A stretch of 47,478 nt of DNA, taken from the NCBI GenBank assembly GCA_008632985.1, contig QPGO01000089.1:310001-357478 (forward strand), given 5' to 3'. Both the position numbers and the translations under genes were made by a program. Under the pieces are notes generated by a model. The model had not been told where the DNA came from. It made no database searches and saw only the letters and a program-made list of their open reading frames with translations. The DNA is from Psammoneis japonica (lineage: Eukaryota). The first letter of the stretch is position 1. Each line of letters opens with the position of its first letter. Below are positions 2,571-41,750 of this stretch, piece after piece.

Positions 2571-4667
2571 ATGCGCTGTGCGCTGATTGACTCTTGCGTG
2601 AAGCAGAAATGGACCAAGGCGAAAAAATACATCCAAGAGTACCCGCAGGCTATGCATGATCTCACAACTTTGTTTGGTGGAGAATCTTTGATTCATTTTC
2701 TCTGTCGCTGCGATTGTGGTTGTTGGCTGAAACTGTGCGAATTGTCTGGTTGTGAAGGAGTTAAAAGGGGAGCGGAAACGGAAGATGAATCATCCCTTCA
2801 AAGACTTGCCTTTGTGCAGTCGGAAGATGGGTTCGAGATTTCCCGTCAAATGTGTGACTTTGTGCAGTCAATTTTTGATGTGGCTTTCAGCAGAGACGAT
2901 TTGGATTCATCCGAGAGACGGGAACTCGCACGATCAATGCTGTTCTGTCACGATGGATTTGGAAATGCGCCGCCACACACCCACTTTGACGAGAATGGTC
3001 GTGCATTGAATCAAGCGCTTGCTGAGACTTTTCTGGACTCAGCTCGAAAGATCTCTCCCACAACTCCGCACGAGTTGGTGACTGCTGCAAACGACGCTGG
3101 CTTTGCAGTGTTGCACTGTGCTTGTTTTTCTGAAAACAACGATGTTCCCCATGTTGACTTTATGCAGTCAATGTTTGACATGGCTTTCAGTGGAGACGGT
3201 TTGGATTCATCCAAGAAACTGGAACTCACGCGATCAGTGTTGTTCTGCCGCGACAGATCTGGACGCACGCCGCTGCTCATCCACTTTGACTGCATTTGGG
3301 GTGCGAAAAATCCAGCACTTGCAAAGACTCTTCTGGATTCGGCTCGAAAGATCCATCCCACAACTCCGCATGAATTGGTGACTTCTGCAAACGACGATGG
3401 CTTTGCAGCGTTGCACCGTGCTTGTCGCTCTAGAGATGACGATGCTTCCCATCAAATGTGTGACTTTTTGCAGTCAACATTTGATGTGGCTTTCAGTGGA
3501 GACAGTTTGGATTCATCCGAGAAACTGGAACTCGCGCGATCAATGTTGTTCTGCTGTGATAGATCTGGAAACACGCCGCTGCTCCTCCACTTTTACAGCA
3601 GCTTTGCAAGCAGCTTGGACAGTCCGAATCTGGCTCTTGCAAAGTTTCTTCTGGATTCGGCTCGCAAGATCTCTCCCACAACTCCGTGCGAATTGGCAAC
3701 TGCTGCAAACGACAGCGGCGTGACACCATTCCACTGCACATTCGATGGGAGGTGCTCAGAGCTTCTTGTGGCTTGTTGCAGTGATGCTCCGTCAGAGGAT
3801 CCCACTTTAATTCTAACTGCAGAAGGTGATTCTTGTCTGGACTGGGTGGGTGAACTTGGTGCATCCCCAAGGCACTGGAAGCTGCTGTTGGGATGTGGCG
3901 CTGGAGGACTTGTGCATCAAGACAATCGGGGGTGTTTTCCGGTTGACGCGATCATGGTTGTGGATGACGATCATCTTCATGAGTGACCACGAGAGTCTGT
4001 CCATGAAATCGTCGATCTCATGTTGCGTGCTCACTTTGAAAAACTTGAAGCAGCATCAGAAGACTGGTTTCCACTTCATGCTCTAGCGCAAGCACCCTTT
4101 TGTCGCCCACACGTGTTGAGGGTTCTCCTTGACATTTCTGACTGGAGCAGCCAGCTTTTGACCTTTGATCATCAAGGCATGTTGCCACTTCACATGGCGG
4201 CAGCACAGCCGGACTCGAAGGTTGTGAGTGCCCGGCGGCCCCCGCCGTTTTACCCGGACCTTTTAATCCCGTTGTTGATTGATGCGGAAATGCCGGAAGG
4301 CGAAAACAACATGATTCTTGTGTTGCTGAATGCTTGTCCTCAGGCTGCGGCTCTTTCAGTAAAAAAGACTGGTGGTCGGCTGGCACTTCACTGTGCCATT
4401 GAATCGGGTCATGAGTGGGAAGCAACAAGGCCGTTGTGGAAGGCTGGTCCAGATTCGGCTGGTCTAGATTCGGCGACTGCTCTCGACCCAATGACTGCTC
4501 TCGATCCAAAGACAAGATTGTTTCCATTCTTGCTGGCTGCGTCAGCTCCTGAGAAGCCTCCTTTGGACTTCAAGAGGATGTCTGACGGTGGACTGGATGT
4601 GACACTCGAGTTGGCTCGCCTTCGTCCGGAGCTGCTTGAGTCAGGAACACCCAAGCATTTTTCTCCC
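2571..4667 (+). pseudogene. Ankyrin-like repeat protein gene, hypermutated: in-frame premature stop and 3' MITE insertion
   Basis: ORFs 2571..3986 and 4020..4769 share a frame, broken by TGA at 3984-3986 (probably CGA->TGA). Motifs DRSGNTPLL, DHQGMLPLHMAA, GGRLALHCAIESG and DPKTRLFPFLLAAS. Only 3 Tyr in the first 471 aa, with many Cys/His. A MITE begins at 4668. Confidence 0.75.
2830..3740 (+). repeat. Three tandem ~300-bp (~100-aa) intragenic repeats
   Basis: Recurring CDF.QS.FD.AFS.D.LDSS...EL.RS.LFC.D..G..P....F...LLDSARKI.PTTP(H/C)EL at ~300-bp period (e.g. caactccg at 3061, 3361 and 3679). Confidence 0.9.
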
Positions 4668-5066
4668 GACGGGCTCCAGTCCCAGGTGGGACTTTTTGTG
4701 ACATTGGGCCCGTGGAATTCTGCATGCGAGCTCCGCAGTAAAATCACCAAGCAATGGACACATGAATGATCGCCAACAGAAAAAGAGGCAATTTTGCGAA
4801 CGCATCTCCTCCTCCACACTTGAAGCACATTCTTTGCAGCATGCCCGGGCACACTCTTTGGACATTGAAGAATGTGCCCAGCGCATTTTTGTTGACATGA
4901 GTGCAGATGACAGAAAGCCTTTGGCTTCACAAAACAGGCAGTGTGGAACAATTTTTTTTTATAATGGAACACGTAGAAATGTGCGTGTGAAACATGCGAC
5001 GGGTGACAAAAAACAATTGTGTCACAGCCCAGCAGTGCGAGGTCCCACCTGGAGCTGGAACACGTC
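4668..5066. mobile_element. ~400-bp MITE, GAC...GTC termini, 4-bp TSD TCCC (mutated copy)
   Basis: Left end gacgggctccagtcccaggtgggac, right end gtcccacctggagctggaacacgtc. TCCC at 4664-4667 and 5067-5070. Colinear with 30532..30927. Confidence 0.9.
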
Positions 5067-5562
5067 TCCCTGAGCCAATTCAATGACTGAGATGGCCATG
5101 TGTTTGTCATGCATGCAGAGACAGCCTGAACCACAGCATCACGTAGAAGCAGACAATTCTTTTTAAACACAACAAAGCAGAAGGCACAGTCGACACGCAT
5201 TGCAGCACCCCCGCTCTGAAGCACACGACAGAAGGGAGAAAGAAATCAACTGTCATGAGTGCCGAGCTTGTTTCTGGCAATGAAACGTTTGTAATCACCC
5301 CCCCCCCCCCCCCATTTTTTACCACAATGCATTTCCAGCCGACTGAATGCCATGCCAACAGGGCCCTGCTGAGCTCCTGATGACTTTTGGGGTCACAAGC
5401 AGAGGTTGGCGTTAGTCACAGCTATCACTAAAAATCGTCCCTCGTACTTTCACGTGTGATAAAGGTGCTCCGCGAAAAGTTAGTTTCATTTTCAAATACC
5501 CGGCACCATGAACAATACATGCCTGTTCTACCGGCATTCTCGAACAAAAAGAAAATAGCTCC

Positions 5563-6101
5563 ATCGTTTAGTCGTGGCGCCAGAACCCCGGGTGCGGCAC
5601 CCGTTTTTTTTTTAATTTTTTTAATAAGGAAATTATGCATTCGACCAAGAAATTACTGTTTTTAATACGGAACAATAGCCGTTGACAAATGACACATGCG
5701 TCCGTTGAATCGATAAGATGTCAACACGATTGTTTACAATCATTTGGGGCCTCATATATGTACTCTTACTTTAATAATTGAAGATCAAAATGAGGTTGAT
5801 ATATCCAAAAATGAAAAACCCGGGCGCCACGCCCTATTTCTGGTGACAGCTGTATCTCTTGTAGAGTGCACACTTTGCCGTTGAGTTTCTATTGAGAAAT
5901 CTACAGAACTAGACAGAGTATCAGAGGGTGGCGTTATGTTATATCGAAAGAGTGTTGGTAATGCCGAACAAAGTAGCCGAAAATATTAGTGCTCCGTATG
6001 AAAAAATCAATTTCTTGGTCGAATGCATAATTTCCGTATTAAAAAAATTGAATAAAAACCCGGGTGCCGCACCCGGGGTTCTGGCGCCACGACTAAACGA
6101 T
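5563..6101. mobile_element. ~540-bp MITE with ~95-bp terminal inverted repeats (unmutated)
   Basis: atcgtttagtcgtggcgccagaaccccgggtgcggcacccg...ggaaattatgcattcgaccaagaaatt on the left is the reverse complement of ~6009-6101. Imperfect flanking duplication (agctcc / agctgc). Confidence 0.85.
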
Positions 6102-6140
6102 AGCTGCTATTTCTAATCTAGTTTAACTTTTAAAACGAAT

Positions 6141-7782: not shown

Positions 7783-10700
7783 ATGATGAAAAGTGACAAT
7801 GACGTGCCTGAAGCGGGCAATGCATTAGATAGTATCATCGCAGAGACCAGTTCGAGAACGTCGAGGAGTAGCAGCAGTGCCGACAACAGAGACTACGAAA
7901 ATGCCGACAATCTCATCAGTCCCGCATCGTCCCTTCAAGATGAGCCGGGAGTCAATGAAAGTATCAAGGCTGACAACGATGGTTCCAAAAGGAGAAAACA
8001 TGGCGAGAGAAACGAGAGGCATGATCTCTTTAATGACCTGGGCGATGCAGTCACGTGGACGACGAACCAAGATAGGACTAAGGCATGTTGCTGCGGGCGG
8101 TTTGTGAATGGCGAGTTATGCGTGACTCGAGACCCTTGCGAAGCATGTCAGCGCCACGCTGCATCCTTTCGACTTGATATCCTTCGAGAACGATTTTCAT
8201 TGTCCGATCAGATCCTTGTTGCTGCCATGCGTAAAAGCGGCGGCAATATCAGTAGTACTACTGCTATGTTGATCGGCGCCGGTGCTCGTGCCAAGCCAGA
8301 TGAGTCCATCTTGAAGCAAGCCATGGATACCCTGGCATTACCACGTCACATGGTTCAAGTTGCATTACAAAGAAATAATATATCAATAATGGGTGCGGTT
8401 CAGTGGCTGGAGGATCCCGAACATGTTCAAGCTTGCTTTGAAGCTGCAGTCGATGCTCATTTGCACGACGACGTTGGAGAAAGTACCAACGAAGAAGCGG
8501 AAGAATTGACGCCGGCTTTGATGTGTTTAGCCGAGACATGTGAAGAGATAACCCCCAGCACATTAGTGGAGGGTATAGATGGGCATCATTTCCTTGTGGA
8601 TGTTTCGGCCAACAAATACCAGCAACACTGCGTTCTATGTGCCAGCCCCTTCCCAAGCCTTTACGCTGGAAACCGACAGTGCAAAGCTTGCCGGCTCTGT
8701 GAGGGCTGCATCAAGTATGGCGCCGTACATGTGTGTCCAAGTCTAGCCAATGGGACTTCAAATTTGCATGATCACCCTCTAACCTTCACACTTGCTAGAG
8801 AGCAGTGCATCTGCGATCCGGAGATTCGTGGTGTCTGTATCGACTACGATGGAAACGACGACGAAGTTTATCATGACAACCGATCCTTTTGGTCGTGCAC
8901 TGAGTGTGACTATGACGTTTGTACAAATTGTATACGACATGATTTTCAATCGAATGGAGCTCGGAAACGTCATAATGCGCCGTGGTACAGCATCTTTGAA
9001 TCTCATCTCGAAACAGACCGACAAACGAGCAAGAGTTTTATGAAGATCCATATGATGACTGCCACTATCCATCTGAAAGTGTGTGCTTGAGTATCAGTGA
9101 CAGCGATGACAACATCAACGATAGTGACAGCTGCAGCGAAGATAGCGAGGAGGATAGTGACTCGTCGATAGATTCCTCGGATGTGAGCGAATGCAACAGC
9201 GAAGATAGCGAGGCGTACTGTTGTTGCCCAAAACATCTGGGCAGCTTTGACTCTACTAAGGCTTCGCGAACTCTTGCTTTGCTTTGGAACGAGGCATTGT
9301 TAAGGCAGTCAAAAACAGGCGTGGACATTATTTTGGGAACTGGGCAGATTGGAACTACAGCGCCTAGCGCATCGAATGGAGTTGCCACAGTGGCGACTAG
9401 ATACGACGATAGCGAAGTGCTTAGTCCGATTGCGGGAACGCAGCTCTCACTGGAGGCGACCGAGGCACTTCGATTCTTCAAAGAATTAGATGGGGTTTCC
9501 GCTGCCTGTGCGACTTACGCGGAGCACTTCTTGCACCAAGCGGAACAAAAGATGAATCAAGAGAAACCGTCAGAACTTTGCCCGATCTCAAAGCGTTCTC
9601 TACGCTTTCAAATATACAATGCTGTTGCATGTGGTAGTTTGGATATTGCATCTGCACTTCTTTTCTTCCACTCGTACTTCTTCGACGACAACACGAAGCA
9701 GGATGTAGTATGCTGGTGCGGGGATCCGATCCAGCAACACGGAAGTGAGCCTGTGACGTGTCTCGGTGGTCATGGCATGCACGCGGCTTGTGCCGCAGAT
9801 TTGGCGTTAGGCGGTGGCTCGTGTCCAACGTGTCGTAGTCCTATGTTTCTATCAGAGCTGTCCCGAACAGAGTTTGAGGCGGCGGATTCTCTTGTGGATG
9901 ATACTCCTCCTGAGATCAAAAACCAGATAGTGGACGGAGAATCGACTGAGGAAGCTACTAAGGCCAAAATAGCGGTCGGGGATGTTGTTGAAATTCATGC
10001 TGATGTGAAGCACTGTGCGGATGTTCAGAGACGCAGTCCATTGTCCGGCGGCTGGAACAAGTCGATGGAATTAGCGTGTGGATCAAAGGGGGAAATCATG
10101 TCAGTAGTGACGGATATGCACGGAAAAACGACATCAGCTCGTTTAAAGACACTCCCCAAGGTTGGAAGGGATGGACAATCGCACCATGTCCTTCGTAGGG
10201 AGGACGACTTTGCTTGTGATGGGTGTGATATGGTTGGTCCATCAGATCAGACTGGTTCTAGGGTGTGTATAAATTGTAATTTATGTGGCAGATGCTGTGC
10301 CATGCCGACGCGCACGCGCTGTCAGGCGTCTCGGCTAAATCAATGGAGCTGGGATCTCTCACTCTTGTCTCTTACTCGAGCCCCTCCGGAGAAAGGCGTT
10401 GTAAACAGCGATGACTTGGACGGTCCCGCTTCTTCTGTACAAAGCGCTGACCAAGACATGTCACGCTTGCGTGCGGAGCTTGTTGCTGTCAAGACGGCTC
10501 GCGAAAGTGTCACGAAGCGACTTGATCAAGTCGACCTTAGGAAATCTTTGCCGATCTTGTCAGGTTTCTTGAGTCTAGCAACGACTCCGACAACGCGTTG
10601 TCCGCTCTATCTTCTCCGGATATCCTCAGGGCGGCTCATCTTGTTAAGTTGGGGAATGAGGCACTGATTGACGTACGACAAGAAGATCTACAGGCTGGTC

Positions 10701-12474
10701 ACTTGGATACCATAGCTCGTAGCATTCGCCGTGAAAATGCAGAACAGGTCATCGAAGCCGCCAAGTGGGATGATGCATCAAGTGAAACGAGTCTCTATGT
10801 AGTTAAACCTTTTGCAAGGATTCCCCTTTTGTCCTCCCAGCGCTTGATGCTCCGAAAACAGGATACGCTCTTGAACCGCTCTCTCAATTTCAGAGTTGTC
10901 AGGAGCTTTTGGACTCCGAGACGGGTTTGCTTTGGATCCGGGTTTCTGAAGGGTTGAAAAAGGACGAAAAGTTGTGTGGAAGTGTCTCCGTGGATCCCGC
11001 GATGCCAAATACTTTGGTCGGAGCACGTGTCTGCAGGGGTAGGGATTGGGACGAGAGAAGGCACGGAAACAAAGATGGCGGTGACGGTAAGGAGGGGACG
11101 ATTCTCAAGGGCTACTCTGATCAAAATGTAGCCGTCAAGTGGGACAGCGCCGCCACTACATCAGGGAATCCTATTCATTATCGTGCAGGAAAGGATGGCT
11201 TTCACGACCTTTCTTTTTCGAAGACTACGCCGCCTCAGGGCTGGCTGTGCGTATCTCCCTGGGGTTGTGCCGGTCTGTCTATCGTTACCAGGATAAACGA
11301 CGCAGTCAGCTGTTGTGGTTGTGGTGAGGAATTAGAGAGCCACAAGAAGAGGAACGCGTCGAAGGCTGGAGAAGTAATTGTTGGAGACTGCGCCTTAGTC
11401 GCCGCTACACTAGAGTGCGTAACTGTGGAGTCGATTGATGCCAACGGTCGTGTTCTTTGCTCCTTTTCGTCCGTCGCACGATCTCTTGGAGCCGGCAAGA
11501 AAGAATTTTGCGGTTCTTTCTCTGTCTGGTATAAACCTGAAGATTTGGTAAAGCTGGACGATGAAGCTCACTCAGAAGATGGCGAGGAACGTAGAATACT
11601 AGATGGAAAGTCAAGAACAAGGCGTGAATTCGTGCTTCATTTCGACCGCAATGTTGTACGCGCACGAAAGGAGTGGGAGACCTCTGTATTCCGTGAGCAG
11701 CCGGATACCGGTACGTCTTGCGAATATGCGACGTGTCTTAGGGGTCACCTCCTTCATTCAAGATGTTTTCAAATGGCGTTGATGAAGGGTGGTCGCTGCC
11801 CTGAGATGGGATGCAATGAACGGCTGTGGATGCCAAAAGTTCAGCGTGTGAGAAACCATTCTGTCGACGAAATGGACTGTGGGATTGACCATCAAGCAAC
11901 TACGGAGGCCCAAGTATTGCAGGCATCTTCGCAGCTAAGACAAGTAGCAGATGCTGTGGCACTGAGAGAGCGAGAAGTCGGAAGCATTGGAAACGTAGAA
12001 GCTGCACTAGCCACATCAGGGGATCTGAGAATGTGTCCCTCGTGCTTTGCAGGACCCCTGTATAATTCTGATTGCTCCAATATGACACGCCATCATGGTG
12101 AATGCACAGCGGCCTTGTTTCAAGTAGGCATCGGGCAATGTACCCCCAATGGCATCTTTCAAGCCTCCCATGCTGAGATTGCAGCCTCGGTGATGCAACT
12201 CGCTGACACAAAATCTGTGCCGGAACGTTTACCACGGTGTCCCACGCATGCTGCGATTGTGATGTTTAACGGTTGTATGGCCTGCGGCCATCTGTTTGCA
12301 AATATGGAATGGTATGAACTACCTCCGTGGGACCCACTAGCAAAGGATCGATTGAACCTTGACAAGTCAAAAATGCAGGCCACGAGATTGCTGGCACAGC
12401 AAGTTCGACAAGAAGCGACACTTTTGGAGTTTGAACGCGACGCTCTTGTGGAACTGGAAAAGCTAGAGGAATAG
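7783..12474 (+). CDS. Large putative E3 ubiquitin ligase (UBA-like, zinc fingers, RING, Mind-bomb SH3 repeat, MIB/HERC2 domain), split by three frame breaks
   Basis: Overlapping ORFs 7783..9090, 9081..10667, 10598..10957 and 10909..12474. RING CCWC...CLGGHGMHAAC...CPTCR; Mib repeat VGDVVEIHADV...GGWNKSM...GSKGEI; MIB/HERC2 GARVCRGRDW...DGGDGKEGTI...VAVKWD...YRAGKDGFHDL. Breaks near 9000-9040, 10535 and 10835. May be a pseudogene or assembly indels. Confidence 0.75.
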
Positions 12475-13253: not shown

Positions 13254-15956
13254 ATGGTCGAACAGCAATTGGACTCTTCGTATCCACGTAAGTTGCTCGA
13301 GAATATTGCGGCGGACGTCCTAGGCGTGGGAGGGAAGAAGGATCGCGCTGGCCTCAACGGCAAGCAGTTGGGTGAATTCTGCGTGGACGAACTCACGGTA
13401 TTCCGAAACAAGTTCGGTCAGTCTCTGATATTGAGCTACGCTTTTACTTTCACGGGCGAGAATGGTGATGAGTGTGTGTTGGCAGCGGGAGGAAAGCAAA
13501 ACGAGAAGAGCAAAGCCAGGGTCTTTGTCGCGAAGGAGATAAAGAAAGACATGTTGGTTGCCGTCAAGAATGACCCTACAGCATGGGTTCCTGCCGACGA
13601 CAACGGTTATCTCAAAGCGTTAGAAAGCAGCAGCTACCAAGGAATGTTCGCCTCGTATGTTTCATCCCACGTTGCCAATTGCTCAGCTCAAGAAGCAGGA
13701 GAGTGGTTTGAAAAGGGTAAATATACGGAGGAAGTGGAAAGACATGTCGGCAATATCCGGCAAGGGGAGGAGGAAGTAAGTATACGCGCATATGAATTTG
13801 TTCAAATGACATGATACTGCACTTCTGCATGCTCATCTAACTCCTTGTTTTCTTTCCTTGAAACTTGTTCCTCATCTCTAGCGTCGTACCGCGGCATCTA
13901 CTACACAGCGGACCGTACCGGCACAGGTGCAAGAGACTCGTTCGAGTACCGACGATGAACAGTTGCCGGTGAGTACATATTGTTATATTGTACTTTAGCA
14001 TACACGCCGTATGATACTTTGTAGCATTCTATCCCATGTGTGCTGACTTATTCATTTTGTATGCCGTTTCTCAATGGAACTCTCCGCAGATTGTATCATC
14101 TTCCGAGTCGACGGCGGCACAACGCACTGGTGCTCCTTCCGTAGTGACGGGCTCCGCTTCAAATCAAACTGAGTTACTTGCGTCCTTGCTGGCTGGTGCT
14201 GGCCAAGGAACGGGGGTCAACATCACCATTAATCAATATCAAGGCGGAAACACCATTAATCAATATCAAGGCGAAAACATGCATGTCGGCGACAACATCA
14301 GCAGCGACGCCGCTCCATCCAGCACTGACGGTAGCACCGCCGCTCCATCCAGTACTGACGGTAACAACGCCGCTCCATCCAGTACTTCTGACGGTAGCAA
14401 CGCCGCTCCAACCGGCACCGACGGTGGTGACCGCACTCCTAGTTGGGTGGAACGAATCTTGGAGGGACAGGAACTCCAAGGCAAACGAATCGTGGCGGAG
14501 CAGGGTCGCCAAGGCGAACGAATCTTGGCGGAACAGGGTCGAGTCTTGGCAGAACAGGGACGCCAAGGCGAACGAATCTTGGCGGAACAGGAACGCCAAG
14601 GCGTGCAGCTAAGCGAGGTGCACAAACAGGCGACTACCAAGAAGCCGCCTGCTAGTGCCAGTCGCTACAACCATCATACCCCCGAAGATACTTCACGGTA
14701 CGAAAATAATGATGTATCCTCTCCACAGTGAGTTTCCGAGATTGTTTCTTTTTGTTATTTTGCGATTACAGTCATTAATTGTTGTGACTTACTTGTTTCT
14801 CATGTGTTGTTGGCAGGCGCAAGGAGGAGCCCTCGGTGCCCCATCGGAGTAGCGTCCGCGAAGAACCTGGCCTTCGGACGAAGCTGGAATACGACGACAA
14901 CGTCCCGGATCCGACTAACACAAACGTCGCGCAGATGGCGTTAAAATTTAAGGATAAGGTACTCGAGAAAACGATAAAGGTGAATCCCGATGTCCCGATT
15001 CAACGAGTTTTTGATCAGTACAATGAATGGCGAATCGATGTGAATTCTCCCGACAGGTTGATCTTCATATTTGAAGGAGATGAAATCAAAGACACCAGTC
15101 AAACACCAAACAAGTTACAAATGATAGACGGAGATCTTATTTGGGTGGTATTGAAGAAAGGCGTCAAGAACCACGAGATCATTGAGCTTTCAAGTGATGA
15201 GGACGATAAGGACGAAGACGCACCACCAAAGGAGGATAAGACCCCCCCTTCTTTTTGTTGCTTAGGTGACAAATGCAAGCATAATCGTCCGGGCCATGTG
15301 CCTCACGAATGCCACGCAGCGGGTTGCAAAGCGCAAATCCACCACCTTTGCGCCCTTGAAGAAAAGCTACTCGGTCAAAATGAGAATCATGCCTATTGCT
15401 GCAAGGAGCACCAGATCTCCGGTGAGCTCAAGGAGCAACAGCAGTCTTCCGAAAACAAGCCAAAGGCAGACAGTCTTGCTGATGTTATCTACGGAGCAGC
15501 AGCGGTGGCTGGAAATGACAGTCGCCTTGTCGCTGCAATGCAGCCTACGTTTGATGTAGATCCGAAGCTCCGTTCGAGTTCGAATTCTAGCACGCCCGTC
15601 AATATGGTATGTGGTTTTCTTTTCATATTTTTCTCATTCTCAAACACTACACCCCCTAATCAAATGCTTTTGTCTTTGCTGTGATTGCTTTGCTCAAGAA
15701 TACGAACGTCGATAGTGGTCCCGTCAACGAGGTATGTGTGAGCGTCGATAGAGAAGATGATGGTGCCTCCGAGGGTGACGCGAAGCCGAGTGGCGATGGC
15801 GACGCTGCTGCCACCGCAGGTTCTCGAAAGGCCCCAGCTGGCACGGCGACGATCCGATGCGAAGCGAAAGTCAAGGGCGGGCATCGTCGCTGCAAAAATA
15901 AATTCACGCCCAAATGTGAAGGGGAGAAATTCTGTGCCTTGCACACTCCCAAGTGA
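13254..15956 (+). CDS. Spliced gene encoding a SUMO-like (Rad60-SLD-type) ubiquitin-fold domain plus Cys/His zinc fingers and low-complexity repeats
   Basis: Phase-compatible exons 13254-13775, 13882-13968, 14090-14727, 14817-15606 and ~15699-15956. Donors GTAAGT, GTGAGT, GTGAGT, GTATGT; AG acceptors; ctaac/ctgac branch-like sites. LIFIFEGDEIKDTSQTPNKLQMIDGDLI is SUMO-like. FCC...C...C...C...HHLC...CCKEH and a terminal C-x10-C...C..H finger. Confidence 0.75.
14305..14600 (+). repeat. Coding tandem repeats (AAPSSTDG.. x4; RILAEQGRQG x3-4)
   Basis: Direct repeats gccgctccatccag.actgacggta and gaatcttggcggaacagg, also present in the paralog at ~46160-46460. Confidence 0.85.
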
Positions 15957-18430: not shown

Positions 18431-20382
18431 CCACATTCTCCCCTAAAACTCTAACCACCAAAAACCGAGGGGTCGGAAGCGCACTTTTGGGAGCTCTTTT
18501 TCTCCGCACAAAAAACACGCGTTTCGTCGACTCGACCATGACGACCTCCCGTTCTTCGTCCCCCACACCACCTGATGCATCCCCGCCTGCCATGTCTGAT
18601 GCGGCAGTCCCTCCTGCATTGGCCAGCACCGTCACACCCGCTGTCGTTACCCAAACACAGCCGATTTGCCATCCGGAGGATTTGGGCTTCTGTTCGCCGG
18701 ATCCTGTGCCTGAAACACAAACACAGCGCCATGATTGGTCTGCTCCTGTCATTGCGTCCCCGGAGAAACTAGATTCTCGTTCACATCGCCGTGTTGTGGA
18801 AGGCACTGATGAGCCTTCTCTCAAACGGTCTGGGGTGCAGCTCCAAAACCAGGTCAAAAAACAAAAGCAACAAACCGACGTCAAGGTTCAGTGGGCATGG
18901 CAGAGGAGCATCTATGACAGGAGGCATGGTGACAACCTTTCTCAGGATGATCATTCCCAAGCAGAACCTTGTCCATCTGGAGGTGATTGAGACTCACCCA
19001 GAGCCCAGCGGAACCAATCGGAGCCAACAACAAGTGTCAAGATGAACCGCAGCAACATGTGAAGGAGGATGTAGCCAATGGAGTGTGGGCAGAGAAGGTG
19101 CCGGCATGCAAAGTGGCAGCATGGCTGTTGACAAGGCACCAGTTTTGAAGGTCTGACAGTGACAAACACAAAGAGCATTTGCCAAAAGCACGTTGCTGCC
19201 TGCCTCCATTTTAGCAACATGCAAAAACAGCATGTTGCACATCACATGTAGAACTCAAACGGCAAGAGTGGCCTCTTGTGGAACTGCACATGATGACCCA
19301 GTCCTGGAAAATGGAGCAGTGTCCAAGTCACATGCACCATTTGAAACCTTGCCAAATCGCCTGCAAACAAATGCCAACTCGCTGACCTCTCCAACTTGAA
19401 ACTAAAAAACTGTGAAAGCATGCCTGCCATCTAATTGTCATCAGGTTTCTAATTTACAGAGAGCTGCACAATGTGTCTGCATGTTCTAAAGATTAGACTG
19501 CACTCGAGAGCCAACCAAGAGGCACCATTCATGTCCATTGATGTGTCATCCATCAGCAGGCCGTGGTTGTGTGGGTTTCCTGGTCCGCCGTCATCCGTCA
19601 TCCATTGTGTTCCTTCCAAAGCAAAAACAACAACAGTGTCAACAGCACCTGCGGCAGCAAGGGCAGGAGCAACAGTGCCGGGCATGCCAGGGGGCCGAAA
19701 CGCAGGTGCGGCACTGGAATTCGTGACAGCATCTGTGGGAGGTGGTGGGGCGAGAATGAAAGAAGTGTGAGTTGTTGGCATTTCATTGTGGACGTTGTTG
19801 GCAAAATGCAACAACAGCATCAACAGCACCTGCGGCAGTGAGGGCAGGAGCAACAGCATTGGGCATGCTGGGGGGCCAAAACGCAGGTGCGGCATTGGAA
19901 TTCGTGACAGCATCTGTGGGAGGCGGTGGGGCGAGAATGAAAGAAGTGTGAGTTGTCAGCATTTCATTGTGGACGTCATTGGCAAAATGCAATGACAGCA
20001 TCAACAGTGCCTGCGGCAGCAAGGGTGGGAGCAACAGCATCGGGCATGCTGGGAGCCCGAAACACAGGTGCGGCGCTGGAATTCGTGACAGCATCTGTGG
20101 GAGGCGGTGGAGCGTGCAAACAACAGTGTGAGTTTGCAGCATCTTATTTTGTGCGCATCAAACCCACGAGAACCGGAATGATGACATTGCCTGTTGTGTC
20201 AGTGTCATTGGCAACGGTGTCAGCAGGATCGGCGTCCTGGGAAGGCGATGGGGAAGAACCACGAGGCATCGTCATGGTCGAGTCAACAAAAACGCGTGTT
20301 TTTTGTGCGGAGAAAAAGAGCTCCCGAAAGTGCGCTTCCGACCCCTTGGTTTTTGGTGGTTAGAGTTTTAGGGGAGCTGTGG
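18431..20382. mobile_element. ~1.95-kb non-autonomous DNA transposon with ~140-bp TIRs
   Basis: ctcccctaaaactctaaccaccaaaaacc.aggggtcggaagcgcacttt.gggagctctttttctccgcacaaaaaacacgcgttt (from 18438) is inverted at ~20290-20376. No clear TSD. Confidence 0.85.
19629..20112. repeat. About 2.7 tandem copies of a ~181-bp unit
   Basis: Unit starts ...cagc(a/g)tcaacag..cctgcggcag at ~19629, 19810 and 19991, each followed by ggaattcgtgacagcatctgtggga. Confidence 0.85.
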
Positions 20383-23300
20383 AATGGGAATTTTTGCTTG
20401 TGGAACACACACATTCGTGTGGATGTTAAGTGGGCGCACCACAGTTCTCGGCCCGTTCATTTTCTACGTGGCCTGGTGCAACCCAAATCTGTGTAGATTC
20501 AGTGCATTTCGCCCTGTAGAACAGTTTTTGGGTGTGTTTTCTGGCTCGCGACGCAAAACAACACGCAAAATAACACGGACAATGGCGTTTCGCCGATTTC
20601 AAAAATGCGGTTGTTTCTGAGGTACTTTGTAGTGTGCTCTCAACGGAATGTCACACGTCACAGCATGGGGCATGTGACAAGCTCGAGAGCACACAGGTTC
20701 ACATGGGTGGATCATGGTGAAATTTTGAACTGAAGATTGGTGTTGACACCGCCGATTTTGTTGCATCAACACGCAACTCATGCATCACCATTCATGCTGT
20801 GCATTTCGTTGAGCACTCACACGCTCACATTCTTTCAACTTACACACATGTTGTCTTTCCTCATTGTTGTTTTGTTCTGCAGGGTCTCCCTTGCCATGGG
20901 CCATCCCTGAGAGAGAAATGCTTGCTTTGAATGTCACTTCTACCTTGCAACGGCCACGGCAGTCTGACGACAAGTCCAAGTCACAGATGCAGCATCCGGA
21001 TGACTTCACAACAAACACAGAAGCTTGGGTCTGTGGTGTCTGAAGATGTTCAAGCTCTTGGCAGCTCAGATTTGTCGTCGAGCAATTTTGACGCGCATTT
21101 GACGTGCCTCCAGAAGGTGATGCGGAGTTTCATTCGACAGAGAAATGAGCCATGGCGATTGTGATGGCTTGCATTGAGTCTCACAGATGCAAGGCAGTTT
21201 ACAATGTAGAAATGTGTGACTCATTTGCCTCATCTGCTAAGCCTGTGCAACACATTTAGATGTCAAAGTTGGGGCAAATTATGCACAATGCCAAGTCTCC
21301 AAAAACAGCACAAGAGTGCAAGCCCAAAAGAAGAATCAGCTTCACAACTCATCATGGGAGTGTAGAGCTCATTTTTCTGGGGCATCATGTCTCTGTTGTT
21401 TTCATGGAGTGGACATTCACTGGTGTTGTTGCCGCCAACGTGCGAGTTCGCCTTGACAACATGTTGCACTGCATTCTGAGAGTTTGGAATGAAAAAACAA
21501 CTTGCGTTTGCATTGTTCTGTCATGACAGAAATGCACGAGCCATCCCTGGCCCTTTTGGAGAAATGGGGCAAGTGAAAGAGGAGCTACAGAAAGACACGG
21601 ATGATGCCATTTTGATGGATTGTCGTCAGGTGGTGTGTCGAGAGGAGTCGTGATGGAGTGCCGCTTTGTGTTTTTGCACTGCGTCCATGTGGGAATGTAC
21701 GTGCTTGGCTCTCGTGTAGTTTCTGCGTAAAAAGTGCACCAGGCGATCTCTGGACTGCCCTCTTAACATTGAAACTCAACGCACGGCGAAGCCGTGTGCG
21801 CACAACCACGCACACACACACAGCTCCCCTGCCACAGGGGTGGCCGCCACAGCGATTCAGGCTCGGTCCAAACGCTTTCAGTTTTTCGAAATCGGGCAAG
21901 TGGGGGACTGCGTCACTCAAACAGAGTGGAACTCTGCTCAACGCACTTCACCGTGTTGTAAATTGAAATCATGTGGCGAAAGCACGGTGAAACTGGCAAG
22001 TGGCGGAGAATGTCCAAATGACAATTGGCAGGAAAGTGGCATCATCGAGCCTGTCCTAGACACATGTTCTCTAAGGAGAACCAGAAAACGCATCCGCGGC
22101 ATGGCAAGTGCGGTCATGACGGCGGCATGGAAATCTGATTGGACAAACAACATCAGCCATGAACTGCACTCTTCACAACAAGTGATGTTGACATCATTGT
22201 TGCCCCCCAGCACCTGCCAGCATCGCGCAGACCCCAGTCTGCCGACCGGCAGGCACACACCAGGTTCTAGAGCAGTCCCCCATTTGATCGACTGAAAGCG
22301 TTTCCACTGCTGGCACAGGTGAGCCGTGCTGGATCGGATCGACGGATCGCACCCCTGTGGACTTCAGGTCTCACCCATTCCCAGCACTTTGTCGTGCATT
22401 GCATTGGTGGATCTCGTCGTCACTCCCCAACATTTGTCATTGCTCACCACATCAGCACTTCGCGCACTGTCCATTGCAGACATCCGGAATGTTCCGTTCA
22501 TCAACAAAGTCTTGGAAGACGATGGCACCTGTGTGCACCACCACACGAGTGGGAAGAGACCGTTGTTGATCTCTCTCACGTTGCCTTGCTGGTGGATCTT
22601 GTGCCAAAGCACTGTCCTGTGGATTTGGCTCAAAAATCATTGATGGCTCACTCTTCTTCCACCATGCACCCACTCAAAAATGCCCTTCCGGCTGACAGTC
22701 CAGTCAGCTTCATCCGCAAAAGATCAGCCCTTGCGCGCCAATTTCTGCACCATCAAAACTCCTTGTGACAGTGCCAAAGACATGTTCCATGCCTTGTTAG
22801 AAGTTCTCAAAGAACATCCTCTTGCAATGGTTTTGTCCTGCTGGCGCTGTTCCCAACCAGAAGCTTTCGACAAAGCAGTGCAAAAACAATGTGCAAAACA
22901 AGTGCCAAGACCCATGTCGCTCCGGTCATTCATTGCACGGAAGCCATCTCCTTTTGCTTGTCCACTGCAATTGAACAAGTTGCAAGAGTGTTGGATGTGG
23001 TGCCATCCAAGAATCTCACTGCTGCCCAGAGGTGCAACATTCTCTGGTCAACAAGGATTGTTTTCATCAAGCAAAGCATTGCATTTCAGAGCATCTTCCA
23101 GAATGGTTCAAAGAGGTCACCATCAATGCAGGGATTCCTGACAGTCAGCCCAACCCATGATTTCTGGAATCAGCAATGACATGCCCGACACTGTTCAATC
23201 CATTTCTTCTGCCAGTGTCCAGAGTTGGGTGTCACTTGACATGTCTCCAACAACTCACCTGCTGGATCCACACCACCACCCAAGTTTGCACATTCTGCAG

Positions 23301-25652
23301 TGCCTCAAGCTCCTCCAGATCCAAAAAGTGTGGGAGTCCACGGTGGTTTTCTGACTCATTCTCAAGTTTTGAAGAACACACCTGGAGCGGTCATCCCCGG
23401 CACCATCCCAGTCTCAGAAATGTCAACTCAGTTGACTGAAATTGCTGAACTGCAATTGCTTGTTCTCAAAAACCAACAGGAGCAAGAAAAGCATTTTGAA
23501 GCTCTGGAAAAGAAGCGTCAAGAGTCCATTTCTCTTCTTTCTGTCCAGCTGCAAAACACCTGTGCTGCTCAGCTGCACAAACTGCTCTGGCCACTCAGGT
23601 GCAGAAAATGACTCAAGAGACCTTTGCTTCAGCAGTTCACAATGATCCAACCTCTCGTCCTCAATGGAAAAAGCCGGCTTCATCAGCACCCGCCGGGGCT
23701 TCAGCACACAACCCTCCCAAAGACACTTCCATGACCGAAGCAGACAGTTCGGATTTTCTGTGAGGCAGGCCCAGTTGTCTCACACCTGCCTGTCTCTTCC
23801 ATGACACAGATGCAAGCCCTTTTTCCCAGTCTTCCTTCAAGGAAGCATGGCCTCAAAATGAGGGGTGACACCCCTTCATCCACAGCTGGTCCCGCTGCCC
23901 AGTGGTGGACCCAGTTGTTGTCAGGTGGAAGTCACGCACCTCCCTCCAGTGCCATCAACCACACCAAACTGTCGTCAAATGAACCAACATGGAGGCAACT
24001 TTAACAAGTGCACCCAAGCAGCCACCAAAATTCAGGCCAGCACAATTAGAGCATCAGAGACATGTCTTGACACTGCACAATTTCAAGTTTGTCACACCTG
24101 CACCTCAGTGGTGAAATGCTCTTCACACCATGGGAAACTCACTTGCTTGTCCTCAAAGACTGCCTTCTCCATCCCGCACAAACCAGGTGGGACAGAGCTC
24201 ACACCATGCAGCTCTCTCTCTCTCTGCAAGGTGCTGAACTCAACTTGAAGACCCCCTTGGATGCTGCTGGTCAATGCAGATTTTTTGCGGGAAACGCGGT
24301 TGACAAGTTGTGTTTGTTTTGTGTTGCCCAGTTTGTTTTGACTCTTTGTCACTGGCAGGCAAGACAACCACATGTGCTCAGCAAAGGGCTTCACTCCATC
24401 AGCAAGGCCGCGTAAATCCAGACCCTCTTTGCACCTTTTGCACCAATCTGACTCTCATTGTTGAATGGTCCTTGGATGACCCAAACCAAGAAGCGATTTT
24501 TTTTGGAGTTTTTCACGCAGATTTCTGCCACAACTTCGACACACTGGCTTCCATGGCCCAACAATTTAACATGTTGGATGTCATGCACCACCAACATGAA
24601 GATCTTGACTTTTTGACTCATGCATTTGAGGTTCTTGATGCCTTGATTACATCCCGGTGACTCCTGGTGCTTCAGCCACTGTGCAACTCTGCAGATGTGA
24701 ATCTTTTGGCTGCAGAATGTTGTGAGATCACCGCAGCTGCTTTGTTTGGAAACCCTTCAGTTGATCTGCCAAAATTCCAGTTCTGAGATCTTCAAGCATC
24801 TTTGCCCAAACTTGTGACTGCATGTCTTGAAGCAATGGATTCTTTGATTGCAAGTCAAAACATCCTTGCCAGAACAGAAGCCCTCCTTCATTCAGAGGCC
24901 CCAGACCATCATCTTGCTGAGAGATTGGACCAAGACATGCTCCAGTTGTTGCTGTCAGCAGCTGACAAATGCAAATGATGCAAAGACCCAGAGTGGTCAG
25001 CCAAGCCAGCCAAGCTTTGGAAGCAAGTGTTCATGTCATCGCGGATGGTGGCTGTGTTCTGCAACAGAAAGGACATGGTCCCCTCCACTCTCCAAGCTGA
25101 GTGCAGACAGTCAACTTTGTTCCTTCTCCCTGCAATGATTAAAGAATGTACAACGGCCTTGCTTTTGGCCTGTCCGGAGTGTTGCCAGGTTGCAAAGGAG
25201 AGTCAGAAACATTGAGGCACGGAACGTGACACAAGAGAATTGCCAAATTAGAACTCAAAGGCACCAAACAGTCCAAGGCTCAGGCAGAAATTCTTCACAA
25301 TTTATGCTGTGTGGAAGAAACAAAGCAAGTCTTTAGAAAAATCAATGCCTGCAAAAGAAGTGGGAAGACTCTGGCACATTGTTCAGAGATCACAGAGTGA
25401 CAGGGCTGTGTTGCTTGGCATGTTGGCATTAAAGTCAATGAGTGCACATTAAATCACACACATCCAGGAGCAACAAGCATGAAATGCACCAATCAGGATG
25501 GTGAAATTAAACAAAAACATTCCACCCCCAAAACCAGTGGATGTCGATTTCAACATGAAGGGGGGTCAGCAAACATTTGCGTGCATGCACACACCATGAG
25601 ATGGTGGGGTTTGATGACACTGGTGACTTGTGGCCCCTTCTGCGGGTCTCTG

Positions 25653-26670
25653 ATGTGATCTTGCACATTGGCTTGCAAGTTGACTTGCCCAAAACAATTG
25701 TGTTGCCTGCCACATGCTGCTTTCACCACCTGGCTCACATCGTTGATTTTTGCTTCTCATGCATCTCCGCTGCTCCCTGTGTTTGCAACATGAACAACAA
25801 CACCTCAGTTCACTGCAGGAAATGATTGCCCCATGCTTGGCAAACATTTCCTTCCAGCTGGTCTTCAACATCACCTCAGAACTTGTTTGCCTTGCAACCT
25901 TGCAAACTCTCCTTTTTTTCAACACATTTGTGGTGTTTCTGGCAACAAATCAACAGACTCTCATTGCACAGAGCTGCCAATGGGAGAATCTGAAGAACCC
26001 AGTGAAGCCATTGCCTCTTCTGCCTTTNACGCCCCCCCCCCCCCCCCCCCTCCTGCTGAAATGGCTGCAACAGGAGTTGGTTTGTCTCATTCCAGCACCA
26101 CCGCGCCCACTCCACAGGCTCATTTGTGACACAGCCCCCAGGCCATTGAGACCCAACATTGCTGTTGTGCAGGCACAAGAGTCATGCCCTTCTCATGACA
26201 CTGCCATTTGGCCAGGTGCCAATGATGTCTCAGAACACCAGCACCCAGACAACAGAGAAGAATTTGTTTCTGCTTCATTTGATGGTGGTGTGTCTTCTTT
26301 TGTTGCCAAGGGGCTTGCTGCTGTTGTTGATTTGGGCTCTTTTGCCACACTGGATTGAGTTGAGTCCTTTTCTCCTGACAAAGATCTCATTGTCCTTGAA
26401 GTTTGTAACAGCAAAACCATCTCCATGGCTGGCATGTTGGAAAACTGTGTTGCTCCAAGGGTGCCCCAATTGAGTGTGCAGCTGAGGAACTTCTCAGAAA
26501 TGTGCAAGAGGAGTGCTTGTGTGGTGGGTTGTCCACCAACTGACAAATCTCCTGTTCTCGCACTTTCATTTCAAAGCTTCTTGGGTCCATGTTGCTCAGC
26601 ATTGTCGCTGCATGGCAGGTGGCAAGATTGTTTTGGATGAGTCAACTTGCAAGTCAATGTGCAAGAACAT
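25653..26670. mobile_element. ~1-kb degenerate TIR element
   Basis: tcttgcacattggcttgcaagttgacttgcccaaaacaat...cctgcca (25659-25712) is inverted at 26613-26666 (tggcagg...attgttttggatgagtcaacttgcaagtcaatgtgcaaga). Confidence 0.6.
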
Positions 26671-27099
26671 GCCATGAATTGATGCACAAGATTTGTTGTC
26701 TCCACACTGGTCTGACAGGCTTGCATCAAGCAATTGACAATTTAAGACAAATCCAGCTGGTCACAACAACAGACATTTTGTCATGCTGGCGTGCATCTTG
26801 GATTTGTGCACAACCAAATGTGCACGTCAGCACCATGCTCATCATGCAGCTTGTCCCCCCCAATGCTGTTGTGGGGTGCATTGGCCTGGGCTGTCAACTG
26901 GCAATGAAGAGCATGATTGTCATCATGTTCCATCACGACAATGATCTTTTGTGATGCAATGGATGGTGCAAGTGAAGAGTGAAAGCAGCGCACCTGCTCA
27001 CATTCACAAACACTGATGGTTCATTGAGAGAATTGGCTGATGTCTTTGGCGCATGCCAGCACACAACAATTCCTCCCTTTGCACTGAAGCATCAGTGAG

Positions 27100-27420
27100 A
27101 GGCCCCCCCATTTCACTGGGGGTGTGAGTTCCAGGCATGAAAGACTTTCCAAGACCTCCTGGGTTGGCTTGTGTGAATCAAAGACTGGCGCAACACCTTG
27201 CAGAGACAAAAGAGTCCCAATCTTTGAGTTGGGAAAGGCAACAGAGTGAGCGCCATTCTTGTCAAACTGTTGGGAAGTGCTGTGAATTGTGAGGAGCGTG
27301 TGTGTCCTCAATGGGCCCACGCTCTTCTGACACGCGGCTGGCACTGGAGAACATGACAAAATTGGGCCCCAAAGCACAAGCACAAGCACATGAGTCCAAG
27401 TCATTTGTCACTGCCTGCAA
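27100..27420 (-). mobile_element. Fragment of a second Ty1/copia element (protease-integrase linker region)
   Basis: QQFDKNGAHSVAFP...LSLQGVAPVFDSHKPTQEVLESLSCLELTPPVKW parallels MPLEAMG...TPAEQELREFPKIQMTSQQPWDP of the main copia at ~40340-40460. Confidence 0.55.
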
Positions 27421-27634
27421 AAGCAGCAGACACATCTTTCAGGAACAACCTCTGTGTCAACTGCATTCCTGTTCCAGCTCCAGCAGGTGATTGCAAGTGG
27501 TGGCAATGAGATGTGTGAATGCAACAAGGCAGGGCCCTGCTGGTGTGACCCTCATCATTGTCAACGTGAAAAATCAGAGTCATTGTCACAAGTCAAGGGC
27601 TGGCATGTGAGCTCTGGCAAGTGGAAAAATGGTT

Positions 27635-27860
27635 CCAGATTGTCCCTGTCTTCAGAACTTCTTGATTCTAGATTGTCCCAATCCAGAACTGTGCAGCTCT
27701 AGATTGTTCTGATCTGGAGCTGTTCTGATCTGGAGCTGCTCAGCTCCAGCTGGAGTGCCCCAATCTTGAGCTGTGCAATTCTGATTTGTGCCCCAATCAG
27801 CTGGAGCCACACAACTCTAGATTGTCCCATCTGCAGCTGCATTTGGCCAATCTGGAACTG
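27635..27860. repeat. Degenerate short-period repeat (agattgtccc / tctggagctg motifs)
   Basis: Repeated ctagattgtcc, gttctgatctggagctg and gtgccccaatc motifs. Confidence 0.55.
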
Positions 27861-27889
27861 TGGTCTGCCTCACAGAAGGAAGTCATTTG

Positions 27890-28300
27890 CTTGATTTAGC
27901 CAGAAATGACTGTTTCACATCATGTTGGGAAAATTGTCCAGTGGTGCAGCAGATGTCCATCAGTGTGTCAGGGCCCACAGCATGTTTGTGCGACTGTGCG
28001 TGTTGGCCTTGTGCACCACCCACTTGCTGGAAGATGGAAGGACAAGCAAGGTTGGTTTTGTTGGTGGTTTTAGTGGCCCATTGAGTGAATCTAGATGCCA
28101 GATGGGCTCAGCCACCCACAGTCTTAGTGCAATGACGTGAGTGCAACCAACGAGATGCTTCTGGGCCTGTTGCAACTGCTGAAGTTGCAAAAAGTGAGAG
28201 TGTTTCATGGCATTGAGTTGTTCCCCTCTGATGCCACATCACAGCTGCACCAGCTCAACTTTTAGAGCACAGAAGACAATCCCTGATGCTCCAGATTTCT
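27890..28300 (-). repeat. Putative 3' LTR of the copia element
   Basis: Lies just downstream of RNase H, preceded on the minus strand by a purine run (ttcaagggggaccaag). Segments recur at 41421-41750 (gagcacagaagacaatccctgatgctccagatttc; gttggccttgtgcac). Confidence 0.45.
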
Positions 28301-41420: not shown

Positions 41421-41750
41421 TGCAACTGCCAAAGTCACAACAAGTGATCATGTTTTGTGGCAGTGAGTCATTTTCCTCCAATGCCATGTCACAGTTCCAC
41501 CACTTCAACATTTGGAGCACAGAAGACAATCCCTGATGCTCCAGATTTCACTTGCCATCAGCATCAAGCCCATCAAAAACTTTGGTTGTGCCAGAAATGG
41601 AAGCGGCTTGAGCAAAAACCCGCTTCAGTCAGTGCATTGTTTGCAACCATGTTGGCCTTGTGCACACCACCCATTGCAGCATTGCTGGAAGACAGAAGGA
41701 CAAGCAATGTCAGTTTTGTTGTCAGCCCTTTTAAAAACAAAACTTGACAA
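41421..41750 (-). repeat. LTR-like segments homologous to 27890-28300, in permuted order
   Basis: 41421-41550 matches 28171-28300, and ~41585-41740 matches ~27891-28075. Confidence 0.5.

Follow-up and report, generated by a model that had tools for sequence, protein, structure and literature searches.

A TpA-specific mutation process in bounded domains of a diatom-like genome and its probable imprint on an ankyrin-like gene

Introduction

How can one codon position of a gene read histidine in two of its internal repeats and cysteine in the third? This question is raised by an ankyrin-like gene in a 47,478-bp stretch of the Psammoneis japonica assembly GCA_008632985.1 (contig QPGO01000089.1, positions 310,001 to 357,478, forward strand), the whole of which is called the window below and whose own numbering is used throughout. 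The gene comprises two open reading frames (ORFs), and the first of them carries three tandem repeats, R1 to R3 (Table 1). At one equivalent position the repeats read CCG CAC GAG, CCG CAT GAA and CCG TGC GAA, giving TTPHEL, TTPHEL and TTPCEL. A preliminary description of the locus proposed that an ancestral tyrosine codon, lying in a palindromic GTAC, had been hit on the bottom strand in two repeats and on the top strand in the other, by a double-stranded DNA-level process that also reaches host genes. The three codons and their peptides are exactly as described and lie in frame within the first ORF. We report here that the gene sits in one of two blocks of the window in which TA dinucleotides are strongly depleted. 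Taken as a whole, the data are best explained by a near-saturating, TpA-specific hypermutation of the gene and the adjoining repeat after the triplication, a reading that we judge likely.

Results

TA is lost from two sharply bounded blocks

The ratio of observed to expected TpA (obs/exp) is 0.5-0.7 over the window outside two blocks, block A, which takes in most of the gene, and block B, which consists of degraded repeats over 26 kb. It falls to 0.10-0.15 in 3001-5000 and to 0.00-0.20 over most of 19-44 kb, while the genes that flank block A stand at 0.54-0.67. Only 159 TA are left in the 26.1 kb from 18500 to 44600. In the TA-depleted parts the obs/exp values of TG and CA climb to 1.4-1.9, and the edges of both blocks are sharp. 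To quantify the depletion within the gene, its part in block A upstream of the dispersed repeat (2661-4667), with 12 TA in 2007 bp, was compared with five intact window ORFs, which hold 251 in 6952 positions (odds ratio 0.16, P = 6e-16). The number of TA per kb is lower in every codon phase (6.6 to 1.0, 13.3 to 3.0 and 16.0 to 2.0), and the non-coding tail is depleted too, demonstrating that the loss is mutational and not an effect of codon usage. Purifying selection acting as a filter on the outcomes was also considered and dropped, as the phase-specific gains of TG and CA do not favour silent outcomes.

Within block B, CpG follows its own course. It is nearly lost in sub-blocks 23001-30000 and 39501-43000 (obs/exp 0.15-0.23) and retained in the TA-free sub-blocks at 33-34 kb and 37-39 kb (0.78-0.90). 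In space, then, loss of TpA can be told apart from loss of CpG, and the two may be separate processes. The 151 TA that survive in 2660-5410, 18500-30000 and 31000-44000 lean to TTA and TAA contexts (TTAA 29, TTAG 18) and seldom have an A before or a T after them (ATAN in 11 of 151, vs 217 of 746 in normal DNA), possibly reflecting a secondary context preference of the process. To the right of block A, an inverted repeat of 127 bp (5553-5677 / 5987-6112, 89% identical) lies in TA-rich intergenic DNA and is not mutated.

Related copies give the direction of change

Two pairs of related copies allowed us to polarise the changes. The first is provided by the dispersed repeat at the 3' end of the gene, which belongs to a family of ~1000 copies, with a summed word depth of 57,515 in bin 4670-5336 vs ~60 elsewhere, and at which contigs have loose ends (4668, 4671 and 4765). 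Compared with the less-mutated copy at 30532-30927, the copy next to the gene has changed at 19 of 21 aligned TA sites, ten of them to TG and nine to CA, and at 4 of 18 CG sites. The second pair is a duplicated host-gene segment. Where the intact copy at 10281-11427 has an alignable TA (34 sites), its duplicate at 43424-44572 reads TG 19 times, CA 13 times, TA once and CG once, with a single change in the reverse direction. This duplicate also differs from its partner at 46 CG sites that became TG or CA (4 reverse) and by many other substitutions and indels (84.5% identity). Over both pairs, 51 of 55 aligned TA sites have turned into CA or TG in roughly equal shares, and the two outcomes interleave along both mutated copies, with long runs absent. 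By contrast, a control pair outside the blocks (13423-15631 / 45277-47474, 2.2 kb) holds 92 and 78 TA and displays no asymmetry.

These data show that transitions specific to TpA have taken place on both strands, within bounded domains and to near saturation. They bear out the double-stranded, DNA-level process of the preliminary description, with TA changed to CA or TG on either strand and a clear direction in both pairs. They also support its reach into host genes: block A covers a host-type gene, and in the mutated host segment both alignable Tyr codons of the intact partner went from TAT to TGT. The palindrome GTAC, on the other hand, was not the target. No requirement for a base on either side of the mutated TA was seen, with G before and C after in only 4 of 50 tabulated sites; the target is therefore TpA.

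The duplicated host segments form a segmental duplication of two matching stretches, 80-84% identical (10281-11427 / 43424-44572 and 13423-15631 / 45277-47474), whose ORFs include Mib/HERC2-like and Rad60-SLD ones. The edge of block B (~44500) divides the second copy, so that the stretch near the block is mutated and the farther one is not. The less-mutated copy of the dispersed repeat lies in an island of normal composition (30501-31000, with 27 TA and 29 CG per 500 bp) within the otherwise TA-free block B, which may be either a young insertion or a sign of episodic activity.

Because only one copy of the duplicated host pair is mutated, we infer that targeting is positional: it would follow a silenced domain, or spread from repeat DNA, rather than depend on paired homology. 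An alternative is that the same TpA process is triggered by recognition of repeats, as in fungal repeat-induced point mutation (RIP), here through the three tandem 300-bp repeats. We regard this trigger as unlikely. It would agree with the content of the blocks, block A including the tandem array and the high-copy repeat and block B consisting of repeat DNA. Block A, however, runs ~900 bp past the array into unique gene sequence (3754-4667), the copy at 10281-11427 escaped while the one at 43424-44572 did not, the 2.2-kb pair is unmutated in both copies, and a member of the ~1000-copy family is almost unmutated at 30532-30927.

TA steps resolved two ways in the intragenic repeats

The repeats have a period of 300-318 bp and are ~80% identical. 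Their alignment comprises 294 ungapped columns, of which 101 are variable, and holds no invariant TA column. Eight dinucleotide columns combine CA and TG among R1 to R3, including the column with the His, His and Cys codons (hereafter the flagged column). In one further column the two resolutions of a single TA can be seen directly, with TG (2954) in R1, CA (3254) in R2 and TA still in place in R3 (3560). The cells of the repeat columns amount to 15 TG and 11 CA. Among adjacent-column double-transition alternations between the repeats, 14 of 27 are of CA vs TG (binomial P = 9e-5, with CA+TG making up 18.5% of dinucleotides in the repeats as baseline); the flagged column alone cannot be significant, but its CA/TG class is. 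Judged by the TA density of intact ORFs, the 294 columns should have held ~10.6 ancestral TA, of which three in four would be mixed under independent hits; the nine mixed TA columns seen match this. Independent resolution of each TA in R1 to R3 suggests that one strand was hit per site and that the hits came after the duplication.

Outside columns that alternate between pyrimidine-purine (YpR) steps, the repeats diverge by 0.19, 0.22 and 0.20 in pairwise comparisons, that is, in a star-like manner. We used a rough ancestor model with a star tree, equal rates, a per-copy CpG decay of 0.32 (from the CG columns) and a TA conversion of 26/27. For the pattern CA, CA, TG, it returned a posterior of 0.88-0.92 for a TA ancestor (0.83 if R1 and R2 shared a hit), 0.06-0.17 for CGC (Arg) and 0.02-0.06 for a two-step change. 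On this sequence comparison, the ancestral codon at the flagged column was, with high probability, TAC (Tyr), as the preliminary description had proposed.

The ankyrin motifs that it had likewise read as altered LHY behave differently. The strings LHCA (R1), FHCT (R3) and LHCAIESG (second ORF) are present, but an ancestral LHY is not supported. In the repeat column the codons are TGT, CGT and TGC, R2 reading LHRA with Arg, and the simplest history is one of CG and TG without Tyr. In the family, the residue after LH varies (I/Y/F and I/T/L at two aligned LH motifs).

Short contigs of the sequencing run described below (X1) join 2508-2822, 2890-3671 and 2986-3646 and thereby skip 313, 780 and 659 bp; their depth is single-copy. 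Such contigs may stem from alleles or paralogues that have fewer repeat units, or be shortcuts taken by the k-mer graph across the repeat array.

Tyrosine is scarce in the gene

The count of 3 Tyr in the 471 residues of the first ORF, against 15 in 417 in the intact ankyrin-like neighbour, was confirmed; the second ORF has 1 in 249. Within the block, 2 of 669 codons encode Tyr, vs 1.7-3.6% in two homologues and the neighbour. For a residue-by-residue comparison, the gene was aligned with two units of a Nitzschia protein and one protein of the Joint Genome Institute (JGI). In two columns Tyr is found in at least two of these three homologue units, and the gene reads TGT (Cys) at one and CAC (His) at the other, the two products expected of a converted TAT or TAC. 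Cys makes up 5.5% of the first ORF compared with 1.9-2.3% in the family. Of the Tyr-poor, Cys/His-rich profile put forward as a marker of affected loci, the gene thus shows the low Tyr and, relative to the family, the high Cys, but its His content is not raised.

Sequencing run X1 carries the same TA-poor sequence

Run X1 is a DNA run available as Logan contigs, with a depth of about 60, and contains 80% of sampled window words. One of its contigs (depth ~70) spans 2920-4076 (1157 bp) with 6 letters different, so the TA-poor sequence is not peculiar to the assembly. All six differences are transitions: TA/TG at 3405 and 3839, CG/CA or CG/TG at 3213 and 3961, and a TG/CA double at 3191-3192. 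The TGA at 3984 shows no difference. Among 40 of the 438 window-X1 differences, those listed, alternations of TA or CG with TG or CA account for 9 of 10 letters in or at block A and 8 of 30 outside, and four TA/TG differences lie in or near block A. This excess hints at recent activity and argues against an assembly artefact.

Evidence against an ancestral tyrosine, and competing explanations

Several observations weigh against a Tyr codon converted by a domain-wide TpA process. The three homologue units, all distant, carry L, Q and V at the flagged column; they thus show neither Tyr nor the His or Cys that would speak for an ancestor other than Tyr. A close unmutated paralogue or orthologue was absent from the protein libraries searched, and the ancestral codon itself was therefore not observed. 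His is not enriched (4.0% vs 3.8-4.8% in the family), and three unrelated intact window ORFs are equally Cys-rich (4.8-5.5%). The less-mutated repeat copy within block B (30501-31000) is unexpected under purely domain-wide continuous activity. X1 may be the very sample behind the window assembly, and its library type is not on record. Lastly, CpG decay acts on the repeats too: in 13 columns one or two repeats retain CG where the others read CA or TG, and in two of these columns (for example 2949/3249/3555) all three dinucleotides occur side by side. The model that disfavours CGC is rough, with its star tree and equal rates.

Since CpG decay also resolves two ways in R1 to R3, an ancestral CGC (Arg) is conceivable at the flagged column. 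Decay of a methylated CpG would have taken C to T on the bottom strand in R1 and R2 and on the top strand in R3, and the codon would never have encoded Tyr. The 13 columns that keep CG beside CA or TG, among them the "LHC/LHR" column (TG/CG/TG at 3117/3417/3735), speak for this history, as do the massive change of CG to TG or CA in block B (46 vs 4 reverse in the polarised pair) and the Arg that homologues carry at the His of ASPRH in the gene. Yet a per-copy CpG decay of ~0.32 predicts ~0.7 fully decayed CG columns, and CG ancestors alone give ~0.5 mixed CA/TG columns in the model, where eight are seen. Moreover, CpG obs/exp of the gene part is 0.77, reported as within the range of the intact ORFs (0.78-1.00), and the repeat at the 3' end of the gene has changed at 4 of 18 CG against 19 of 21 TA sites. 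A CGC ancestor is accordingly improbable, and TAC is the preferred reading of this column.

Far less credible is an ordinary divergence of old repeats, in which CAC would have passed to TGC in two steps, perhaps under selection for Cys or His and without any special process: the repeats are indeed old, being 19-22% diverged outside the YpR-alternating columns with about a third of columns (101/294) variable, but the share of CA vs TG among the double-transition alternations (14/27), an expectation of well under one two-step column, the low posterior of such a change and the independence of the TA loss from codon phase, extending to non-coding DNA, all speak against it.

Equally remote is the notion that the TA-poor blocks are base-calling or consensus errors at modified bases of silenced DNA (for example T or A in TpA, 5-methylcytosine in CpG). 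In its favour, among the differences listed for block A, 6 of the 7 TA/CG sites that could be polarised have the "derived" TG or CA in the window and TA (3405, 3839, 4118) or CG (2571, 3213, 3961) in X1, and the unrecorded library type of X1 leaves room for it. Against it, the X1 contig is itself TA-poor and agrees in all but 6 letters over 1157 bp, the mutated duplicate and its partner are also set apart by many substitutions and indels of other kinds, and a less-mutated repeat copy is present within block B.

The gene, its frame and its surroundings

The two ORFs of the gene share one frame, and when the gene is aligned with homologue units the match continues across the TGA between the ORFs (3984-3986), which therefore represent one ancestral gene. 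An intron across this TGA was considered and dropped, no plausible GT..AG of fitting length being seen by eye. Over 2571-4769, TGA occurs twice in frame 1, once internally, and 10-36 times in each of the other five frames, indicating that the frame was coding until recently. In the same alignment, the C-terminus of the family reaches ~4640-4670 of the gene, where the high-copy repeat starts, so the repeat lies at or in the end of the gene.

TAA and TAG are scarce in all six frames of 2571-4769 (0-6 per frame), while TGA is plentiful in the non-coding ones (10-36). The near-absence of TAA and TAG leaves spurious ORFs of 85-271 aa overlapping the gene on both strands, and gene callers would over-predict in blocks of such composition.

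Both ORFs score below the gathering cut-off of Pfam Ank_2 (27.3 bits), with E = 6.6e-4 and 20.6 bits for the first and E = 5.6e-5 and 24.1 bits for the second, compared with 44.5 bits for the intact ankyrin-like neighbour; on sequence comparison, the assignment to a diatom ankyrin-like family rests on homologue matches and not on the Pfam score. The second ORF matches the neighbour with E = 6e-5. The first matches it with E = 7.3, which is not significant, and we therefore rejected the neighbour as an unmutated reference. A full HMMER search with the 471-aa ORF against 1.84 billion representative proteins yielded six matches at E <= 0.001, all weak, the best being a Nitzschia sp. protein (E = 2.8e-8, 30% identity); none of the six is close enough to read the ancestral codon from. 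Word-indexed protein searches gave no match at E <= 0.001 for the 471-aa ORF (near lengths) or the 249-aa ORF (longer lengths), and an exact protein look-up found no entry for five window ORFs, the first ORF of the gene and four others.

The best matches of the adjoining ureide-permease gene (741-1982) are 42-52% identical. Of its 116 matches, those named by organism come from the diatoms Seminavis, Amphora, Epithemia and Ditylum and from the green alga Chloropicon primus, the latter near the bottom of the ranking at 36% identity. The genes of the window are long ORFs without interruption, and from these sequence features we read the window as part of a diatom-like genome and not of Bigelowiella. 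A Pfam scan of 38 frames, 31 of them in block B, gave a sub-threshold match to RVT_2 as the sole one related to transposable elements, and no viral genes were recognised in the blocks of the window.

Table 1 Features of the window (strand in brackets where assigned).
Feature	Position	Remarks
Ankyrin-like gene, whole	2571-4769 (+)	Two same-frame ORFs split by one TGA at 3984
First ORF, 471 aa	2571-3986 (+)	Closes on in-frame TGA
Second ORF, 249 aa	4020-4769 (+)	Final ~100 bp within the high-copy repeat
Single in-frame TGA	3984-3986 (+)	Divides one ancestral reading frame
Block A	2661-5410	20 TA in 2750 bp; obs/exp TpA 0.12, TG+CA 1.48, CpG 0.71
Block B, 26 kb of degraded repeat DNA	~18500-44500	Obs/exp TpA 0.09, TG+CA 1.70, CpG 0.45 overall
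Three tandem intragenic repeats	2840-3753 (+)	R1 ~2840-3139, R2 ~3140-3445, R3 ~3446-3753
Flagged column, R1	3069-3071 (+)	CAC (His) between CCG (3066-3068) and GAG; TTPHEL
Flagged column, R2	3369-3371 (+)	CAT (His) between CCG (3366-3368) and GAA; TTPHEL
Flagged column, R3	3687-3689 (+)	TGC (Cys) between CCG (3684-3686) and GAA; TTPCEL
CA/TG mixed column 1	2879 / 3179 / 3485	First bases in R1/R2/R3
CA/TG mixed column 2	2891 / 3191 / 3497	First bases in R1/R2/R3
CA/TG mixed column 3	2966 / 3266 / 3572	First bases in R1/R2/R3
CA/TG mixed column 4	2974 / 3274 / 3580	First bases in R1/R2/R3
CA/TG mixed column 5	3002 / 3302 / 3620	First bases in R1/R2/R3
CA/TG mixed column 6	3069 / 3369 / 3687	First bases in R1/R2/R3; the flagged column
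CA/TG mixed column 7	3079 / 3379 / 3697	First bases in R1/R2/R3
CA/TG mixed column 8	3119 / 3419 / 3737	First bases in R1/R2/R3
Surviving TA	3560-3561 (+)	TA in R3; CA in R2 (3254), TG in R1 (2954)
TGT (Cys)	3774-3776 (+)	Tyr in 3 of 3 homologue units
CAC (His)	4032-4034 (+)	Tyr in 2 of 3 homologue units
High-copy dispersed repeat, mutated copy at 3' end of gene	4668-5066	73% identical to 30532-30927
Less-mutated copy of high-copy repeat, comparator	30532-30927	Inside block B; 27 TA
Intact, unmutated host segment	10281-11427 (+)	Within ORFs 9081-10667 and 10909-12474; 38 TA
Mutated duplicate of host-gene segment	43424-44572	Right edge of block B; 2 TA
RVT_2 (Copia-type reverse transcriptase), weak match	29407-30033 (-)	E = 0.0064, 16.5 bits vs cut-off of 31.6

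Discussion

We propose the following sequence of events. The gene, a member of a diatom family, and the repeat that starts at 4668 would share one bounded domain of 2.75 kb (2661-5410). At each TA:TA step one strand would be mutated, yielding TG or CA about equally often, after which the changed site would no longer be a target. The hits would postdate the intragenic triplication, and the outcome at each ancestral TA would therefore have been settled separately in each repeat. In all likelihood the flagged column, with CAC, CAT and TGC, is one of these sites and goes back to TAC (Tyr). A process of this kind would remove Tyr codons, turning them into His or Cys, as well as xTA codons. The change of TA to TG or CA could not create a stop in an open frame, and it would erase TAA and TAG. 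A frame under such mutation would therefore stay open, and an open frame would be weak evidence of function; by the same reasoning, the TGA at 3984 should stem from another kind of change. As to the chemistry, deamination of an A next to a 5' T in DNA, giving inosine that is read as G, is the leading idea, as has been proposed for the chlorarachniophyte Bigelowiella natans.

The closest known system is indeed that of B. natans (Mettrop et al., bioRxiv 10.64898/2026.01.13.699255). There, de novo changes of A to G and T to C occur only at TpA, in two integrated viral regions of giant-virus and virophage DNA; the de novo rate is elevated in mutation-accumulation lines, with activity described as episodic, and a candidate ADAT2-like deaminase has been proposed (10.64898/2026.01.13.699255). 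Clusters of 1-kb windows were defined as poor in TpA and rich in CpA+TpG with cut-offs of <= 0.43 and >= 1.52, and reverse-transcriptase and DDE domains are over-represented among the coding sequences depleted of TpA (10.64898/2026.01.13.699255). In both systems TpA is changed to TpG or CpA according to strand, in a regionally confined manner and in the GC-ward direction, opposite to the usual mutation bias. Both strand outcomes also occur within one region, here with TG:CA of 19:13 and 10:9, interleaved, and low TpA goes with high CpA+TpG in bounded runs (0.12/1.48 in block A, 0.09/1.70 in block B). The organism here is diatom-like, however, and the mutated DNA comprises degraded repeats, the host-type ankyrin gene and the duplicate of a host segment, none of them identified as a viral insert. 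The depletion is near-saturating, at an obs/exp of 0.09-0.12 compared with 0.45 in the nucleocytoplasmic large DNA virus (NCLDV) region of B. natans. Parts of the blocks further show a strong decay of CpG to TpG or CpA, of which the preprint gives no report. A spectrum made up almost wholly of A to G and T to C, free of any CpG component, is accordingly not what we found: 46 CG sites have changed in 43424-44572. In block A that component is small (4 of 18 sites). Our literature search, with the preprint's supplements outside it, returned no report of TpA hypermutation in diatoms.

The process resembles RIP in that repeats within certain regions are hypermutated by transitions, close to saturation and in a dinucleotide context; the spill-over of RIP into adjoining single-copy genes is reportedly known from work on Leptosphaeria maculans. 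RIP is a transition hypermutation of repeats in ascomycetes that changes C to T at CpA, or at CpG, and makes TpA (PMC2621366, PMC3017866). The TpA that RIP creates from CpA is destroyed here, and RIP makes stop codons, which the TpA process cannot. RIP also mutates both copies of a duplication, whereas 10281-11427 keeps 38 TA and its duplicate 2.

Decay of methylated CpG by deamination of 5-methylcytosine likewise turns a palindromic YpR step into TG or CA according to strand, and its signature is present in the same repeats (13 columns) and strong in block B. The two differ in target and outcome: TA is hit here and Tyr gives His or Cys, while CpG decay converts Arg into His, Cys, Gln, Trp or a stop. 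The obs/exp values of block A differ likewise, with a slight deficit of CpG (0.71-0.77) beside a TpA of 0.10-0.12.

ADAR prefers a U before the edited A. Clustered transitions of the deaminase type are shared with ADAR hyper-editing of double-stranded RNA and with APOBEC editing of retroelements (10.64898/2026.01.13.699255). Those enzymes have RNA or single-stranded cDNA as their substrate, and the marks that they leave in retro-copies are asymmetric between the strands. Here, by contrast, TG and CA are about equal (19:13, 10:9), and the mutated DNA includes intergenic sequence and a host gene of non-retro type.

Mutation confined to TpA and directed GC-ward is so far known from one preprint of 2026, for one alga among the Rhizaria. 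If a diatom-like genome bears this signature to saturation, the process would be no curiosity of one species; its targets would include transposon-rich DNA besides viral inserts, and host genes that adjoin repeats could be damaged by it. The triplicated repeats provide a natural experiment, with three independent trials for each ancestral TA. As the process makes no stops and removes TAA and TAG, mutated pseudogenes and junk DNA would keep long frames and be predicted as proteins; a scarcity of Tyr that coincides with low TpA and high TG/CA could flag affected loci in annotation. More broadly, diatoms may have a TpA-specific genome-defence editing like that of the chlorarachniophyte, which would target bounded silenced domains and not paired repeats, operate near saturation, perhaps still be active, and spill from transposon DNA into host genes; we consider the case for this proposal evenly balanced. 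If it is true, a wide distribution of the process across the SAR supergroup (stramenopiles, alveolates and Rhizaria) would follow, with "Tyr-poor, stop-poor" open frames as its footprint at the level of the proteome.

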